Of a stretch of DNA of 6,654 nucleotides, positions 889-6,654 are shown one piece after another; within the stretch, counting starts at the first letter, position 1; each line of letters begins with the position of its first letter. The notes beneath the pieces were generated by a model. The model saw only the letters and a list, made by a program, of their open reading frames with translations. It was not told where the DNA came from and made no database searches. A program made the position numbers and the translations under genes. The stretch is taken from IMG/VR virus record IMGVR_UViG_3300011952_000025; one strand, 5' to 3'. This DNA comes from a virus. Its lineage: Duplodnaviria; Heunggongvirae; Uroviricota; Caudoviricetes.

Positions 889-1104
889 ATGAAATCCATG
901 GATAAGTTAACAACGGGCATCGCCTACGGCACCTCTGCAGGCAGTGCTGGCTACTGGTTTTTACAGTTGCTCGATAAAGTCACGCCCTCACAGTGGGCGG
1001 CAATAGGTGTATTGGGTAGTCTGGTATTTGGCATGCTGACGTATCTGACTAACCTTTATTTCAAGATTAAAGAAGACAGGCGTAAGGCTGAGAGAGGAGA
1101 GTAA
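889..1104 (+). CDS. S: Class II holin, phage 21 S-like pinholin with dual start (Met1 antiholin, Met4 holin)
   Basis: Translation [71 protein letters not shown] (72 aa). Shine-Dalgarno ggaggtgagg at 876-885. Two predicted transmembrane segments and a charged C-terminus. The MKSM dual-start motif matches the S21 71/68 arrangement as I recall it. Confidence 0.85.
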
Positions 1105-1108
1105 TCCA

Positions 1109-1453
1109 ATGACTCAAGTATACGAACTGGTTGTGAAAGGAGTCCGTAATTTTGAGAATAAAGTTGCGGTAACTTTAGCCTTACAGGACAAAGAACGCTT
1201 TGACGGTGAGATTTTTGACCTTGATATCACTATGGATCGTGTTGAAGGTGCTGCACTGGAGTTTTATGAGGCAGCAGCCAGAAGGAGAATCAGACAGGTG
1301 TTCTTGGATGTTGCTGCCGGGTTATGTGAAGGGGATGAGCAGTCGCCGGAAAAGCGCCCCATAATTTTAGAGGCGCAGAATGTGTGGATAACCTACAAAG
1401 GAAAGCTACCAGGAAGAATTACTGGTTATCTGAAGACTCCGCCGGAATGTTAA
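1109..1453 (+). CDS. Conserved lambdoid-prophage protein of unknown function located between holin and endolysin (YdfR-like by memory)
   Basis: 114-codon ORF starting 5 nt after the holin stop, preceded by gagaggaga. Soluble, charged protein MTQVYELVVKGVRNFENKV... Same strand and tight spacing as the lysis genes. Family assignment is from memory only. Confidence 0.6.
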   Translation: MTQVYELVVKGVRNFENKVAVTLALQDKERFDGEIFDLDITMDRVEGAALEFYEAAARRRIRQVFLDVAAGLCEGDEQSPEKRPIILEAQNVWITYKGKLPGRITGYLKTPPEC

Positions 1454-1796: not shown

Positions 1797-2330
1797 ATGA
1801 ACGTAAAAGTCAAATACGGCCTGTCGGCTGCCGTTCTGGCGCTGATTGGTGCTGGTGCATCTGCTCCCCAGATACTTGACCAGTTTCTGGACGAAAAAGA
1901 AGGTAACCACACAATGGCATACCGTGATGGTTCCGGCATATGGACCATCTGTCGGGGTGCCACAGTGGTGGATGGAAAACCCGTTTTTCCCAATATGAAA
2001 CTGTCGAAGGAAAAATGCGACCAGGTTAACGCTATTGAGCGTGATAAGGCTCTGGCATGGGTGGAGCGCAATATTAAAGTACCACTGACCGAACCACAAA
2101 AAGCGGGTATCGCGTCATTTTGTCCCTATAACATTGGCCCCGGTAAGTGTTTTCCGTCGACGTTTTATAAACGGCTGAATGCTGGTGATCGTAAAGGTGC
2201 ATGCGAGGCGATTCGCTGGTGGATTAAGGACAGGGGGCGTGATTGCCGCATTCGTTCAAATAACTGTTACGGTCAGGTTATTCGTCGTGATCAGGAGAGC
2301 GCGTTAGTGTGCTGGGGGATCGACAGATAA
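1797..2330 (+). CDS. R: SAR endolysin (phage lysozyme, T4-lysozyme-like glycoside hydrolase with N-terminal signal-anchor-release domain)
   Basis: 177-aa translation MNVKVKYGLSAAVLALIGAGASAPQILDQFLDEKEGNHTMAYRDGSGIWTICRG... has a Gly/Ala-rich weakly hydrophobic N-terminal segment typical of SAR domains, followed by candidate lysozyme catalytic residues (the E of DEKEGN, the D of YRDGSG, the T of IWTICRG). First ATG after an in-frame stop. Confidence 0.88.
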   Translation: MNVKVKYGLSAAVLALIGAGASAPQILDQFLDEKEGNHTMAYRDGSGIWTICRGATVVDGKPVFPNMKLSKEKCDQVNAIERDKALAWVERNIKVPLTEPQKAGIASFCPYNIGPGKCFPSTFYKRLNAGDRKGACEAIRWWIKDRGRDCRIRSNNCYGQVIRRDQESALVCWGIDR

Positions 2331-2423
2331 GCAGAATATTTCTCTGAAAAATGACGTTGGCCAACGCGAGTGGATAACACGATATTCGTCATAAATGAAT
2401 TGAAGTAGTGAATAAGAGCAGAA

Positions 2424-2459
2424 CCCCCGATTGCGCGAACAGTCGGGTTTTTTGTGTTT
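2424..2459 (+). terminator. Terminator-like GC hairpin plus T-tract in the endolysin-Rz spacer
   Basis: cccga (2426-2430) pairs with tcggg (2443-2447) around a GC-rich loop, followed by TTTTTTGTGTTT (2448-2459). Confidence 0.45.
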
Positions 2460-2489
2460 CCTGACTCCGGAAAAGCCAAAGGAGAAAGT

Positions 2490-2627
2490 GTGTTTGATTT
2501 TAGCAAACTGATTCGGGAGATTCGAACTATGGTTGAAAAATTATCCACCTGGAAATTCATTCTTTTCTGGCTGGTGTTTGCGATTATGGCCTCCGGTTAT
2601 TTCATTGCTCAGATACGCTGGTGGTGA
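2490..2627 (+). CDS. Hypothetical small membrane protein (about 45 aa from GTG 2490, or 32 aa from ATG 2529), translationally coupled to Rz
   Basis: Strong Shine-Dalgarno aaaggagaaa (2478-2487) precedes GTG 2490. Translation (M)[44 protein letters not shown] has one clear hydrophobic helix. Stop TGA 2625-2627 lies one base before the Rz ATG 2629. Missing from the ORF track, presumably because it is short. Confidence 0.35.
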
Positions 2628-2628
2628 A

Positions 2629-2997
2629 ATGAAACCGGTTCTGTATGCGGTGATTGTTATTCTACTGGTGGTCAGTGGTGCGCTGTTGCTGGCAATAGCC
2701 CATTACCGCGATAATGCCATCATCTACAAAGAGCAGAGAGATGATGCGAAGACAAAACTCAGCCAGGCGAACGCAGCCATTACTGACATGCAGCAGCGCC
2801 AGCGTGATGTTACTGCACTCGATGCAAAATACCTGAAGGAATTAGCTGATGCGAAAGCTGAAAATGATGCTCTTCGTGATGATATTGCCGCTGGTCGTCG
2901 TCGGTTGCACATCAGAGCAGTCTGTCAGAGCGTGCGTGAAGCCACCGCCGCCTCCGGCGTGGGTAATGCAGCCGCCCCCCGACTGGCAGACACCGCT
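2629..2997 (+). CDS. Rz: Rz i-spanin (inner-membrane spanin subunit), lambda-like allele, 3' end lost in N-run 2998-3007
   Basis: Translation [123 protein letters not shown]: N-terminal transmembrane segment plus coiled-coil periplasmic domain, closely resembling lambda Rz as I recall it. The ORF-track start at 2533 (TTG) is rejected in favour of ATG 2629. Confidence 0.85.
2849..2997 (+). CDS. Rz1: Rz1 o-spanin (outer-membrane lipoprotein) embedded in the +1 frame of Rz copy 1, truncated by N-run
   Basis: ATG 2849 preceded by aagga. Translation [50 protein letters not shown]... has a lipobox (VVGC) and a proline-rich tract like lambda Rz1. Confidence 0.7.
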
Positions 2998-3007
2998 NNN
3001 NNNNNNN
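2998..3007. other. N-run (10 nt) joining two overlapping, diverged Rz/Rz1 segments
   Basis: Literal n characters. Sequence on both sides encodes the same part of Rz (HYRDNAI... onward). Confidence 0.99.
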
Positions 3008-3008
3008 T

Positions 3009-3383
3009 AATCATTACCGTGATAACGCCATCGCCTACAAAGAACAGCGCGATAAGGCCGCATCCATTATCGCTGACATGCAGAAACGTCAAAGTGATGT
3101 AGCTGAACTCGATGCCAGATATACAAAGGAGCTTGCTGATGCTAACGCGACTATCGAAAGTCTTCGTGCTGATGTTTCTGCTGGGCGTAAGCGGCTGCGC
3201 GTCAAAGCAGTCTGTCCCGACATGCATAAAATCACCGCCGCCTCCGGCGTGGATGATGGCACCAGCCCCAGACTTACTGACGCCGCTCAACGGGATTATT
3301 TCACCCTCAGAGAGCGACTGATAATAATGCAAAAACAACTTGAAGGGGCACAGCTATACATTCGAGAGCAATGCCTCAGATAA
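3009..3383 (+). CDS. Rz: Rz i-spanin, second (diverged) allele, 5' end missing at the N-run; carries the complete Rz C-terminus
   Basis: Frame-3 translation from the gap: NHYRDNAIAYKEQRDKAASIIADMQKRQSDVAELDARYTKELADANATIESLRADVSAGRKRLRVKAVCPDMHKITAASGVDDGTSPRLTDAAQRDYFTLRERLIIMQKQLEGAQLYIREQCLR, stop TAA 3381-3383. Confidence 0.8.
   Translation, partial: NHYRDNAIAYKEQRDKAASIIADMQKRQSDVAELDARYTKELADANATIESLRADVSAGRKRLRVKAVCPDMHKITAASGVDDGTSPRLTDAAQRDYFTLRERLIIMQKQLEGAQLYIREQCLR
3139..3321 (+). CDS. Rz1: Rz1 o-spanin (outer-membrane lipoprotein) embedded in the +1 frame of Rz
   Basis: ATG 3139 preceded by aaggag (3126-3131). Translation MLTRLSKVFVLMFLLGVSGCASKQSVPTCIKSPPPPAWMMAPAPDLLTPLNGIISPSESD (60 aa) has a signal peptide, lipobox Cys and proline-rich region, and is wholly nested in Rz. 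Confidence 0.85.
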   Translation: MLTRLSKVFVLMFLLGVSGCASKQSVPTCIKSPPPPAWMMAPAPDLLTPLNGIISPSESD

Positions 3384-3652
3384 AAACCGGCCAAGGATAA
3401 TCCGCTGAAGATTCGCCGGGGCTAGAGAGAGCCAAAGCTTTAATTGACACCATTACTCATAGCAAGGCAATGCATCGTTTTTATGAGGTCAATAGATGCC
3501 TGATTTATTTCTGTGCTCCGTATCGTCGCTGTATTCCTTCGTTAACCATGAGTGTAGTCCGACGGGGAGCACGAGTGTATGGGAATAATAAAAAAAGATA
3601 CACACCTGGGTTTACCGCTTTTATGCTTCGCGGGTTTGCTCTTCATGCAGCT

Positions 3653-3699
3653 AGTCCGGTACAGAGGTGTATGAAACCGGACTGCTGATTTAATTAATT
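3653..3699. terminator. 8-bp-stem hairpin with U-rich 3' flank on the + strand; also sits just 3' of the minus-strand cargo ORF stop
   Basis: agtccggt (3653-3660) pairs with accggact (3676-3683) around a 15-nt loop, followed by gctgatttaattaatt. Confidence 0.35.
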
Positions 3700-3700
3700 C

Positions 3701-4121
3701 CTATATTAATGGTCTGTTATTTTCAACATCTTCCATGTACAAAAGATCGTGATCAAACGAATAGTAAAACCTTATGTTTTTATCTATATCTGTAATCCAG
3801 CGATAAACACCTGCTTTTGCTAAAGTGAGACGATATTGATGAAATNNNNNNNNNNTGAAATGTAGATTTACCTGATATAAGATTTCTGGCTGCTTCTTTA
3901 ATTAATTCTGGTTTCTTTGATGTGCTAACTTTCACAAGTCCTCTACTGCCTCGAACTAATAAAATATTATCATCATGAGTAATTAGTCTTATATTATCAG
4001 TAGCCAGATAATAAATATAATGCGCAATATTATGGCGTTTTAATTCGGAGTAAAACCATGGGAAGTATAAATTACTTCTAACGTGTTCGAATATCTCTTG
4101 AAAAATATCTGCCTGCTCCAT
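3701..4121 (-). CDS. Hypothetical AT-rich cargo (moron) protein, about 140 aa, interrupted by N-run 3846-3855; family unknown
   Basis: ATG at 4119-4121 (minus) preceded by aagagga. N-terminal translation MEQADIFQEIFEHVRSNLYFPWFYSELKRHNIAHYIYYLATDNIRLITHDDNILLVRGSRGLVKVSTSKKPELIKEAARNLISGKSTF. After the N-run the most protein-like frame continues FHQYRLTLAKAGVYRWITDIDKNIRFYYSFDHDLLYMEDVENNRPLI to the stop at 3701-3703; the literal-frame ORF in the track ends at 3780 instead. Opposite strand to the late operon and strongly AT-rich. Confidence 0.45.
3846..3855. other. N-run (10 nt) inside the cargo ORF
   Basis: Literal n characters. Confidence 0.99.
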
Positions 4122-4252
4122 CAGGAAATATCCTCTTGTCACTGCTACTTCTTACCATGAGCTTAGATAGTTTGCATGATTTGTTCTCTCACATCAATCT
4201 GATCCGACCTCATTGAGGTGGGCGTTGTGAATACCTGATAAGAAATGTGGGT

Positions 4253-4294
4253 CCTCCCAATGGGGGAGGCTGGCACGGGGCGGGAGCGTCGCGG
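4253..4294. other. Candidate cos site: cosQ-like inverted repeat plus cosN-like sequence
   Basis: ACGGGGCGGGAGCGTCGCGG (4275-4294) matches lambda ACGGGGCGGCGACCTCGCGG at 16 of 20 positions. Inverted repeat cctccc (4253-4258) / gggagg (4264-4269) lies just upstream. The cosN-like site is about 185 nt upstream of the terminase small-subunit start, as in lambda (cosN to Nu1 about 190 nt). An AT-rich cosB-like tract follows. Confidence 0.45.
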
Positions 4295-4473
4295 AAAAAG
4301 GCTAGTTTTTGCATTTCCATGGCGGCGGCAGCATGTTTGGTAATTTATTGATAATTAAAAGTTATTTCCCTTTTCACCTGTACAATATTTTTTTCTTCCT
4401 GTCATTAGACCAGTTTGCAATTAATTGAAATATATAAATAAACCTGATTTTCACCTGCCAGATGGAGTTGCTT

Positions 4474-5001
4474 ATGTCAAATGTGAGCGGGATCGGTGAT
4501 GCTTATTACTGGAGTGTTTTTAAAATCGCCGAGGCCTTTGGGCTTCACCGGGACACAGTAAAAAAACGGCTCCTCGCGGCCAACACTCCTGTGGCTGCGA
4601 CTGTCAGGGGGAACCCCGTTTACGCCCTGCAGCATGTCGGGCCCGCCCTGTTTAGTGTGAAGCATGAGGCAGCAGACTCTGTTCATGATCCATCCCGTAT
4701 GGAGCCGAAAGAGAGAAAGGACTGGTACCAGTCTGAAAATGAAAGGATCAAGCTGGAAAAGGAGCAGCGAAAACTCATCCCAGTTGATGAAGTAGTCATC
4801 GTCTATTCGTCCATGAGAAAGGCTGTCGTCCAGGTTCTGGAGACAATTCCGGATGTTCTTGAACGCGATTGCGCTCTGACTCCTCAGGCCGTCGGCGTTG
4901 TACAGCAGGCCATTGATGACCTGCGATACACTCTTCAGGAAAAATCCTACGAGGCTTGTGCTGCTGAATTAATTCCTGATGAGGAAGGAGAGAGTCTCTA
5001 G
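4474..5001 (+). CDS. Terminase small subunit (Nu1-like DNA-recognition subunit); alternative start at ATG 4462
   Basis: Translation MSNVSGIGDAYYWSVFKIAEAFGLHRDTVKKRLLAANTPV... has an N-terminal helix-turn-helix analogous to lambda Nu1 and an acidic C-terminus. ggag precedes ATG 4474. Lies immediately downstream of the cos-like site and 9 nt upstream of the large subunit. Confidence 0.8.
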   Translation: MSNVSGIGDAYYWSVFKIAEAFGLHRDTVKKRLLAANTPVAATVRGNPVYALQHVGPALFSVKHEAADSVHDPSRMEPKERKDWYQSENERIKLEKEQRKLIPVDEVVIVYSSMRKAVVQVLETIPDVLERDCALTPQAVGVVQQAIDDLRYTLQEKSYEACAAELIPDEEGESL

Positions 5002-5009
5002 GAGGAATA

Positions 5010-6654
5010 ATGGGTTTTTCATCAGCCCGAAATTTGGGAAGGGACATATCGGCAGGATTTTCCCCACCACGTCGCATGCCGATTTCGGAGGCTGTTAAAA
5101 AATTCATGCGTGTTCCCAAGGGGGCTGGTAACTCGGTGCCATGGGATCCTGAACTGACACCCTACATCATNNNNNNNNNNATTGAGCCCATGAACTGCCT
5201 GGCATCGCGTGAATACGATGCGGTGATTTTTGTTGGTCCTGCGCGAACAGGGAAGACCATTGGTCTGATCGATGGATGGATTGTCTATACCATCGTTTGC
5301 GATCCTTCGGACATGCTCGTTGTGCAGATGACCGAAGATAAGGCCCGCGAGCATTCTAAAAAGCGCCTCGACAGAACGTTCAGAAGCAGTGCGGCGGTAA
5401 AGAAAAGAATGAGTCCACGTCGTAACGACAATAATGTCCATGATAAGACGTTCAGGGATGGCTCGTTCCTTAAAATTGGTTGGCCCTCGGTCAACATTAT
5501 GTCGTCGTCGGATTACCGGTTTGTCGCCTTAACCGATTACGACCGTTTTCCGGAGAATATCGACAGCGAGGGTGATGGTTTCTCCCTGGCCTCAAAACGT
5601 ACCACCACATTTATGTCCGCCGGGATGACTCTGGTGGAGAGCTCGCCGGGACGTGACATCTGCGACAGCAAATGGCGACGTAAGTCGCCTCATGAAGCGC
5701 CACCGACGACTGGTATTCTTTCCCTTTACAATCGTGGTGACCGCCGCCGCTGGTACTGGCCATGTCCGCACTGCGGTGAATATTTTCAGCCAGCTATGGA
5801 TGCCATGACCGGCTACCGTAATGAACCGGATCCCTTTAAAGCCAGTGAGGCGGCGTATCTACTTTGCCCGCACTGCAGCGGCATTATCACTGCGGAGAAA
5901 AAGCGTGAGCTCAATAGTGCAGGAGTCTGGTTGCGTGAAGGTCAGGTCATTGATCGTAACGGCAACGTTTCCGGTGAACCGCGCCGCTCCCGTATCGCCA
6001 GTTTCTGGATGGAAGGGCCAGCTGCTGCGTATCAGACCTGGGCGCAACTGGTTTACAAATTACTGACTGCAGAACAGGAGTATGAAGCGACAGGAAGCGA
6101 AGAAACACTCAGGGCGGTTATCAACACCGACTGGGGATTGCCTTATCTTCCTCGTGCCAGCATGGAGCAACGAAAAAGTGAACTGCTTGAGCAGCGGGCA
6201 GAGCCAGTTCCTTCCTGCAGTGTGCCGGATGGCGTTAATTTCCTTGTGGCGACAGTGGATGTGCAGGCGGGACGTCATCGCCGTTTTGTGGTTCAGGTAA
6301 CTGGCTATGGCAGTCGTGGCGAACGCTGGATTATTGATCGTTACAATATCACGCAGTCATTGCGCAGTGACTGCGACGGGGAGAGCCAGCGAATTGATCC
6401 GGCCAGCTATCCGGAAGACTGGGATGTCCTGCTGACGGATGTTTTTCATAAAAGCTGGCCGCTGGCCTCCGATCCTTCTCAACAAATGCGACTGATGGCA
6501 ATGGCGGTGGACTCCGGCGGTGAAGACGGGGTCACTGATAATGCCTATAAATTCTGGCGTCGTTGCCGTCGTGATGGCCTTGGTAAACGTATTTACCTGT
6601 TTAAGGGCGACAGCATCCGGCGCGCAAAACTGATCACCCGTACATTCCCTGATA
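5010..6654 (+). CDS. Terminase large subunit, GpA family (ATPase/nuclease), 3' end beyond window; interrupted by N-run 5171-5180
   Basis: aggagg (5000-5005) then ATG 5010. Frame 3 is open to the window end. Walker A-like VGPARTGKT; paired CxxC zinc-ribbon motifs WYWPCPHCGE and LLCPHCSG, as in lambda gpA; continuous GpA-like translation to base 6654. Confidence 0.9.
   Translation, partial: MGFSSARNLGRDISAGFSPPRRMPISEAVKKFMRVPKGAGNSVPWDPELTPYIXXXXIEPMNCLASREYDAVIFVGPARTGKTIGLIDGWIVYTIVCDPSDMLVVQMTEDKAREHSKKRLDRTFRSSAAVKKRMSPRRNDNNVHDKTFRDGSFLKIGWPSVNIMSSSDYRFVALTDYDRFPENIDSEGDGFSLASKRTTTFMSAGMTLVESSPGRDICDSKWRRKSPHEAPPTTGILSLYNRGDRRRWYWPCPHCGEYFQPAMDAMTGYRNEPDPFKASEAAYLLCPHCSGIITAEKKRELNSAGVWLREGQVIDRNGNVSGEPRRSRIASFWMEGPAAAYQTWAQLVYKLLTAEQEYEATGSEETLRAVINTDWGLPYLPRASMEQRKSELLEQRAEPVPSCSVPDGVNFLVATVDVQAGRHRRFVVQVTGYGSRGERWIIDRYNITQSLRSDCDGESQRIDPASYPEDWDVLLTDVFHKSWPLASDPSQQMRLMAMAVDSGGEDGVTDNAYKFWRRCRRDGLGKRIYLFKGDSIRRAKLITRTFPD
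5171..5180. other. N-run (10 nt) inside the terminase large-subunit gene
   Basis: Literal n characters; the frame happens to be the same on both sides. Confidence 0.99.

Follow-up and report, generated by a model that had tools for sequence, protein, structure and literature searches.

Why does a gene for a membrane peptide of 45 amino acids stand between the endolysin and spanin genes of a lambdoid prophage, and how might its expression be controlled? The gene occupies positions 2490 to 2627 of a viral DNA stretch of 6,654 nucleotides (nt) (Caudoviricetes; IMG/VR record IMGVR_UViG_3300011952_000025), which is the late region of an Escherichia coli lambdoid prophage and which is referred to below, at its full length, as the window. 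The original prediction, made from the letters of this DNA, described about 300 base pairs (bp) between the endolysin gene R and the spanin gene Rz, holding a hairpin with a T-tract and then a ribosome-binding site (RBS) that feeds a GTG-initiated open reading frame (ORF). It took the ORF for a real small membrane protein with a single hydrophobic helix, translated together with the spanins and possibly acting in lysis timing. The layout was described correctly. From the R stop at 2330 to the Rz ATG at 2629-2631 the spacer measures 298 bp, the hairpin lies at 2426-2447 with the T-tract reaching 2459, a Shine-Dalgarno (SD) sequence AAGGAG at 2479-2484 precedes the GTG (2490-2492) by 5 nt, and the stop codon TGA (2625-2627) is followed by a single A (2628) and then by the Rz ATG. 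What had been missed is that the hairpin and T-tract are part of a cassette, that the first 14 codons hold overlapping signals, and that an R/Rz spacer is not unique to this insert.

The peptide gene and its conserved unit

Of 37 distinct module sequences (about 97 loci), 36 keep the same 45-codon frame unbroken, preceded by an SD sequence and starting with GTG, TTG or ATG, and the ORF is therefore far beyond chance. Its product matched the profile of PHROG 6632, labeled as of unknown function, over the full length (E = 2.9e-26; residues 1 to 45 on profile positions 1 to 45 of 45). Searches of Pfam, NCBIfam and PADLOC gave zero family matches, and a sequence search of the PDB gave only chance matches to transmembrane (TM) segments. 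Between diverged pairs of the ORF, the ratio of nonsynonymous to synonymous substitution (dN/dS) was 0.05 to 0.23, and the synonymous changes in the family include CGC to AGA. The ORF is thus protein-coding and evolves under purifying selection, and the PHROG match and the dN/dS values bear out the proposal of a real small membrane protein.

One could still suppose that the ORF is incidental and that only a regulatory RNA, terminator or promoter element is conserved, as the strong nucleotide-level constraints in the hairpin and in codons 3 to 14 might suggest. However, the C-terminal 23 codons are saturated at synonymous sites (proportion of synonymous differences, pS, 0.71 to 0.81), yet their amino acids are conserved, their length is constant and the ending GQIRWW-stop is invariant. 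Indels among family members are multiples of three, and the SD sequence and start codon are conserved in all members. Because dN/dS is low and the amino acids are kept where synonymous sites are saturated, we reject this explanation, which we find scarcely credible.

The peptide has one hydrophobic segment at about residues 22 to 42 (Kyte-Doolittle maximum, 2.0), and AlphaFold2 models it as a single helix from residue 4 to residue 44 with a predicted local distance difference test (pLDDT) score of 89, in line with the single helix first proposed. It is best explained as a small inner-membrane peptide of the tail-anchored type, whose amphipathic N-terminus would lie in the cytoplasm, followed by a single TM helix and the final residues RWW. 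One search returned 27 homologues. An exhaustive profile search returned only 38 cluster representatives, of 32 to 86 amino acids as called, which share a conserved N-terminal motif ending in (K/R)F, followed by a TM segment. Homologues of 45 amino acids with a C-terminal GQIRWW are found in Escherichia, Salmonella, Citrobacter, Edwardsiella, Yersinia, Sodalis, Izhakiella and Trabulsiella, and a relative in a Pseudomonas phage has 48 amino acids. Among 5,426 complete E. coli genomes, 898 contain the 310-bp region, which is at least 80% covered in 867, and the ORF is present in the Shiga toxin (Stx) phage H-19B.

The existence of the ORF is not new. It is annotated as EC_CP1639_39 in phage CP-1639 and as WP_000459345.1 in O145:H28, and so is already catalogued as a hypothetical phage protein; most records, including those of H-19B, SPN3UB and most Stx phages, leave it unannotated. 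Our literature searches, including those by accession number and family identifier, found no paper on the ORF or the cassette. The predicted sar-like antisense promoter, the candidate internal start and the apparent mobility of the cassette, all presented below, appear to be undescribed.

In a cross-genus alignment of the loci, similarity sets in with an A-rich tract immediately 5' of the hairpin and stops exactly at the ORF stop codon. The alignment shows a conserved unit composed of A-tract, hairpin, T-tract, RBS and ORF, with sharp ends at the A-tract (5') and the stop codon (3'). Every full-length member, including that from Pseudomonas, has the hairpin, the T-tract, a spacer of about 25 to 30 nt, an SD sequence and a GTG, TTG or ATG start. 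In the window, the terminator-like hairpin consists of 8-bp GC-rich stems (2426-2433 and 2440-2447) closed by the loop CGCGAA and followed by the T-tract (2448-2459; tail TTTTTTGTGT); together with the A-tract it reads as a bidirectional intrinsic terminator. A terminator scan returned one site versus 0.4 expected in shuffled sequences. Across 15 diverged members, 91.6% of the cells were paired and 7 of 12 pairs had compensatory changes, which was reached by 0 of 500 shuffles, and covariation thus shows the hairpin structure to be conserved. With RNAalifold, applied to both strands, the terminator hairpin was the sole conserved structure, and the ORF itself yielded none. The coding strand showed no promoter-like site, and the sequence 5' of the A-tract and hairpin differs between contexts.

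The same terminator/RBS element, which we captured in a covariance model (R1), precedes other small TM ORFs of 51 to 60 amino acids in the same prophages, two of which end in AIRWW. These ORFs have an opposite-strand TAnnnT hexamer (TATACT or TATCAT) at a nearly equivalent place in their first codons. R1 scored 58 to 64 bits at L098 1909-2170 and at L102 3622-3879 and 5148-5384. A truncated cassette is present between baseplate genes of Serratia sp. Ag1 (L013 2998-3099); the hairpin and codons 1 to 13 are missing, and an ORF of 32 amino acids is left.

Overlapping signals in the first 14 codons

Among 13 diverged sequences (78 pairs), mean pS was 0.00 in codons 3 to 6, 0.37 in codons 7 to 13 and 0.67 to 0.81 in codons 15 to 45. 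Codons 3 to 6 contain no synonymous difference although their amino acids vary (F, I or L at position 4). The substitution pattern shows that the first 14 codons carry nucleotide-level constraint beyond coding, and in codons 3 to 14 we attribute it to two overlapping signals: a predicted -10 element on the opposite strand and a candidate internal start.

The first signal is a predicted extended -10 element, TGCTAAAAT, on the minus strand inside codons 3 to 6 (ORF nt 8 to 16), reading toward the hairpin. In the alignment, the opposite strand of each of the 15 members shows the pattern TGnTAnnnT in one and the same column. Its occurrence in 16 of 16 members compares with 3 to 34% expected from each amino acid sequence under random synonymous codons; AGC is the only codon used for Ser5, and codon 4 ends in T throughout. 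The position of the -10 element and the minus-strand terminator together predict a cis-antisense RNA of about 75 nt that would start about 7 nt downstream of the -10, cover the GTG, the SD sequence and the spacer, and end at the hairpin. In most members, the A-tract 5' of the hairpin corresponds to a U-rich tail on the minus strand.

This arrangement resembles the sar locus of phage P22. There, according to the BK000583 annotation, a terminator follows arc, a 32-nt spacer contains the ant RBS, and the 5' end of sar abuts the ant ATG; the promoter Psar, TGcTATACT in the GenBank record, lies at ant nt 7 to 15. In common with the cassette are a hairpin terminator after the upstream gene, a spacer of about 32 to 38 nt with the RBS before the start codon, an opposite-strand extended -10 (TGcTAnAnT) at ORF nt +7/+8 to +15/+16, an antisense RNA of 68 to 75 nt over the RBS (in the cassette, predicted only), and a promoterless gene that is read through from upstream. 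The putative elements of the cassette thus have a sar-type layout, with an opposite-strand promoter in the first codons and a terminator about 70 nt away, 5' of the RBS. In contrast, P22 sar regulates an antirepressor of 300 amino acids, and the cassette encodes a membrane peptide of 45.

When the window was scanned in full against Rfam at E ≤ 1, a spurious small nucleolar RNA match was the only result, and focused scans gave only sub-threshold matches to sar, preQ1-II, the His leader and the rimP leader. At the coordinates of the predicted antisense RNA, sar (RF00262) was the best sub-threshold match, with 14.1 bits in the window (2417-2479, minus strand) and 28.6 bits in the best family member (Edwardsiella L008 2927-2997), against a gathering score of 43. 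A published small RNA (sRNA) table from Hfq cross-linking and analysis of cDNA (Hfq-CRAC) is uninformative on the cassette, because the Sakai prophages Sp15, Sp6 and Sp10 carry ant and another small ORF between R and Rz and because EcOnc11 is located downstream of Rz. Separately, an Izhakiella prophage contains at L012 4550-4640 a true sar-like element before a P22 Ant-like gene (ATG TCA AGT ATA GCA...). This sar/ant homologue (4550-4623) is distinct from the cassette carried by the same prophage, so that both element types coexist there.

The second signal is a candidate start at codon 14, where GGGAG precedes an ATG by 9 nt. Met14 is invariant in all aligned family members. An SD core stands before it in 15 of 17 diverged members, with a null probability of about 0.04 for sequences of the R-E type; Arg9 is always encoded by a rare codon, CGG or AGG, and where Glu occupies position 10, as in 13 aligned members, its codon is GAG. 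Met14 is also the very point at which the Serratia remnant and several gene calls start. These features suggest a Met14 start that would yield a TM-only isoform of 32 amino acids.

An upstream start, a conserved internal in-frame start and an antisense RNA at the upstream start, of which the last two are predictions in the cassette, are also combined in the sieB/esc/sas region of P22. In 1993, Ranade and Poteete reportedly found for P22 sieB/esc that the antisense sas RNA controls which of two in-frame starts is used in translation. A review (PMC5415839) names alternative translation as the process that sas RNA regulates. P22 SieB differs in being a much larger, prophage-expressed protein. Dual-start holins (lambda S107/S105 and phage 21 S71/S68) likewise are small membrane proteins of lysis cassettes; a pair of in-frame starts and folding of the RNA around the first RBS are further points in common, the second start being a candidate and the folding a prediction in the cassette. 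Unlike these, the cassette peptide has one TM segment and 45 amino acids, its starts are 13 codons apart, and it often occurs outside lysis cassettes. The peptide had no holin match in Pfam or PHROG, the cassette is not exclusive to endolysin neighborhoods, and the window already has an S21 pinholin.

The RBS of the full-length ORF may also be masked. Minimum free energy folds of 16 members predict that UUUCCU, at the end of the T-tract, pairs with AGGAGA of the SD region and encloses a small inner hairpin. The arms of this inner hairpin differ by subfamily (CCUUG/CAAGG, CGUUA/UAACG and CCUUCUG/CAGAAGG), and the helix that occludes the SD pairs in different registers across subfamilies, so that column-wise covariation is not countable.

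An antisense RNA, if made, raises the possibility of a type I toxin-antitoxin (TA) system, in which a membrane toxin peptide and an RNA antitoxin would serve prophage maintenance or abortive infection. The cassette shares with hok/sok, tisB/istR and zorO/orzO a small hydrophobic single-TM peptide (45 amino acids), an occluded RBS with a weak start codon and a short cis-antisense RNA over the RBS with a terminator hairpin, the occlusion and the RNA being predictions here. Several paralogous copies occur per prophage, beside ParE/RelB/HicAB genes. On the other hand, the putative toxin gene is without a promoter of its own and comes immediately after a terminator, so little toxin mRNA would be expected in the lysogen for an antitoxin to neutralize, and it matches no known type I toxin family and no PADLOC or NCBIfam model. 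We regard a type I TA system as quite unlikely.

Genomic contexts and relation to Rz

If the peptide were a dedicated component of the lysis cassette, translated together with Rz/Rz1 and acting on the spanins or on lysis timing, it should belong to this junction. The cassette does occupy the interval from endolysin to Rz in at least five lysis cassettes whose holins and endolysins are unrelated (the window, SPN3UB, Citrobacter L009, Edwardsiella L008 and L106). Wherever a copy from E. coli, Citrobacter or Salmonella SPN3UB precedes a PF03245-type Rz, stop and start are again 1 nt apart. In the Sakai prophages, the ORF directly ahead of Rz also encodes a small TM protein, but a different one. 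Yet the spanin pair that lies 140 nt from the Edwardsiella copy is an unrelated one, and the cassette is also found between baseplate spike and wedge genes (SEN34, Rac-SA53 and Yersinia), in the lambda-like tail moron region (behind gene K and at the equivalent place), and among ParE/RelB/HicAB genes of an accessory region that lies upstream of the terminase, at sites without a spanin nearby. Conservation ends at the stop codon, and the phage-21-type cassettes and K-12 Qin, in which R overlaps Rz, work without such a gene; in Qin, the holin-YdfR-lysozyme-Rz order of the window is kept but nothing is inserted. None of the small Ynf proteins of K-12 Qin corresponds to the ORF. A dedicated lysis factor is, in our judgment, improbable.

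Coupling to Rz depends on context, since the same unit occurs at baseplate, tail moron and TA sites. Of the proposed co-translation with the spanins, what stands is that translational coupling of Rz to the ORF is plausible in the window, where the 1-nt spacing is kept. Any tie to Rz would exist only where the cassette has landed next to it, and the idea of a spanin- or lysis-specific factor finds no support in a unit that ends at its own stop codon. As read from these junctions, the Rz arrangement reflects where the cassette landed, and the peptide is not a dedicated spanin partner. The contexts show a cassette that appears horizontally mobile across the late-gene sites of many prophages, from Enterobacterales to Pseudomonas.

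The R/Rz junction is itself an insertion hot spot, because the Sakai prophages carry a different insert there. In Sp15, Sp10 and Sp6, the same R leader of about 90 nt is followed by ant and an unrelated 48-amino-acid hydrophobic membrane ORF (ECs_5741/ECs_1966, MGWLMISDKL...), which ends 7 nt before Rz. Both alternative inserts thus place a small membrane ORF directly before Rz. The leader lies outside the mobile cassette: similar sequence follows R in SPN3UB and Sakai Sp15, and in the alignment similarity to nonlysis contexts is lost 5' of about position 2412. Within the leader, a short conserved GC-rich stretch after AAAAATG (2350-2385) reads GACGTTGGCCAACGCGAGTGGATAA in the window, GCCGTGGCGCCACGCGGGCGGATAA in SPN3UB and GAGGTTTGCTTACATGGACGGATAA in Sakai Sp15; it is readable as a mini-ORF of 8 codons in some copies and is out of frame in others.

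Like phage morons (defined by Juhala et al. 2000, as cited in PMC4104026), the cassette is extra DNA between conserved late genes that moves between unrelated phages and has sharp boundaries. A classical moron is arranged as promoter, ORF and terminator on one strand, whereas in the cassette the terminator lies upstream, no coding-strand promoter was found and the ORF would need read-through; its only self-contained transcription unit would be the predicted antisense RNA. The classic moron positions in late operons invite the reading that the peptide is a lysogenic conversion or superinfection exclusion (Sie) factor, an inner-membrane protein made by the prophage that blocks phage DNA or modifies a host membrane protein. 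However, expression from a repressed prophage is not expected for a gene that lies behind a terminator and has no conserved coding-strand promoter, and the Pfam, NCBIfam and PADLOC searches gave no homology to known Sie proteins. We consider this reading very unlikely.

The features discussed here and their neighbors are listed in Table 1. Gene assignments are based on profile matches and on the annotation of the identical complete genome NZ_AP021933.1, in which the endolysin is labeled rrrQ/lysozyme. The window is a draft scaffold with N-gaps at 256-289, 2998-3007, 3846-3855 and 5171-5180; positions 300-2997 and 3856-6654 are 99.9 to 100% identical to NZ_AP021933.1. An apparent duplication of Rz (2629-2997 and 3008-3383, with Rz1 at 3112-3321) was rejected as an assembly artifact from a paralogous prophage, because the piece 3008-3845, in which Rz restarts at about residue 25, is only 92.5% identical whereas its flanks are 99.9 to 100% identical. 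In NZ_AP021933.1, Rz is one intact gene of 465 nt and 154 amino acids.

Table 1 Features of the window and of the inserts compared with it
Feature	Position	Strand	Remarks
AraC-like moron gene	ends at 697		
S21-type pinholin	889-1104		
YdfR/DUF1327 gene	1109-1453		
Signal-anchor-release (SAR)-type endolysin R (phage 21 R-like)	1797-2330	+	5' neighbor of cassette; PF00959, E = 2.7e-23; phrog_7
Leader downstream of R	2331-2411	+	common to lysis cassettes with different inserts
Cassette 5' boundary (A-rich tract, hairpin, T-tract)	2412-2459		
Predicted cis-antisense RNA	2414-2491	-	about 75 nt
Predicted SD-occluding pairing	2457-2485	+	UUUCCU 2457-2462 with AGGAGA 2480-2485
Peptide gene, 45 codons	2490-2627	+	GTG start, TGA stop; TM segment at about 2550-2615
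Predicted extended -10	2497-2505	-	
Candidate second start	GGGAG 2515-2519; ATG (Met14) 2529-2531	+	32-amino-acid isoform
Rz i-spanin gene	2629-2997	+	cut by scaffold gap at 2998; PF03245, E = 1.3e-32; phrog_13
DUF1441 gene	4462-5001		large terminase further downstream
Sakai Sp15 insert	L113 730-1740		
Sakai Sp10 insert	L115 1286-2278		
Sakai Sp6 insert	L114 from 4548		

Three further observations concern neighboring sequence. Between YdfR and the endolysin, an ORF of 90 amino acids on the minus strand (1419-1691; phrog_2411, E = 3.4e-53, PHROG label function unknown) converges on YdfR and overlaps its 3' end; the annotation of NZ_AP021933.1 calls it hypothetical. A minus-strand ORF of 89 amino acids at 2291-2560 was rejected as a gene, for want of homologues and because it is the plus-strand frame that the constraints fit. 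Matches to Rfam sRNA-Xcc1 above threshold (63 to 80 bits) were found at L011 4104-4191, L096 3554-3637 and L098 4130-4218, all on the minus strand; in these three unrelated prophages they adjoin Bro-N/antirepressor genes just downstream of the cassette.

A tentative model and what it would mean

Taken together, we propose a mobile cassette in which a terminator, an occluded RBS and an antisense RNA would gate the synthesis of an inner-membrane peptide. The peptide mRNA would arise only by read-through of the late operon, which in the window would be Q-antiterminated transcription passing the terminator. From the opposite-strand extended -10, acting constitutively, an RNA of about 75 nt would be made, able to pair with the SD/GTG region and terminated at the hairpin. 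In concert with the UUUCCU/AGGAGA hairpin and the weak GTG, this RNA would silence the full-length peptide in the lysogen and hold its level down during lytic growth. Initiation at Met14 (GGGAG-N9-ATG) would give the TM-only isoform of 32 amino acids, and the balance between the long and the short product may depend on the antisense RNA. In the window, translation of Rz is probably coupled to ribosomes that terminate at 2627, by which the cassette would incidentally gate spanin synthesis. Our best guess for the peptide, and the weakest step of the model, is a membrane-active product that would be harmful if mistimed and would act late, in lysis timing, membrane energization or exclusion. This guess is drawn from the layered repression and from the location among accessory and TA genes.

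Several observations weigh against this proposal. On the side of the antisense RNA, the -35 region is poor (3 of 6 matches), a strict sigma-70 scan found no promoter, and the minus-strand U-tail is weak in the window copy (GGGUUCUGCUCUU). G-U wobbles make both hairpins stabler on the coding strand than on the antisense strand, whereas in P22 wobble pairs favor the sar strand; because of these wobbles, a role of the hairpin as terminator or occluder on the coding strand is at least as well supported as one as antisense terminator. The Rfam match to sar falls well short of the gathering score and does not establish homology. R1 matches P22 sar with 17 bits, through the terminator part only and at the level of background terminators, so that the likeness is architectural and not proven descent. 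With regard to translation, the SD sequence is paired with a mean probability of 0.78 versus 0.58 in shuffled sequences, which is a modest difference, the predicted opening energies of the two RBSs do not differ, and conservation of GGGAG and Met14 could have protein or RNA structure reasons. The peptide sequence is absent from the Ribo-seq supplements for Sakai.

In view of these points, we are nearly, though not quite, as ready to believe the model as a whole as to doubt it. Any specific function named for the peptide is, at best, somewhat unlikely to be the right one. A more far-reaching version is an RNA-gated switch, in which a sar-like RNA of the prophage and the hairpin would choose between the isoforms of 45 and 32 amino acids and set Rz translation in about one-sixth of E. 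coli genomes, including those with H-19B-type Stx phages; this RNA could also act in trans on superinfecting relatives that bear the cassette. We offer this as speculation and think it unlikely.

If the predictions prove wrong, the feature remains a well-defined, conserved and genetically tractable small membrane protein. If they are right, the cassette would be a compact natural module, with a terminator, an occluded RBS and an antisense promoter within the ORF, in which to study how harmful small membrane proteins are silenced until late, and it may be a hidden control point for spanin synthesis. If both the antisense RNA and the second start are real, it would provide a second and far more widespread example of control in the style of P22 sar and sas. 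A large share of E. coli prophages, Shiga toxin phages among them, have this gene in their lysis cassette, and toxin release from the latter depends on lysis.

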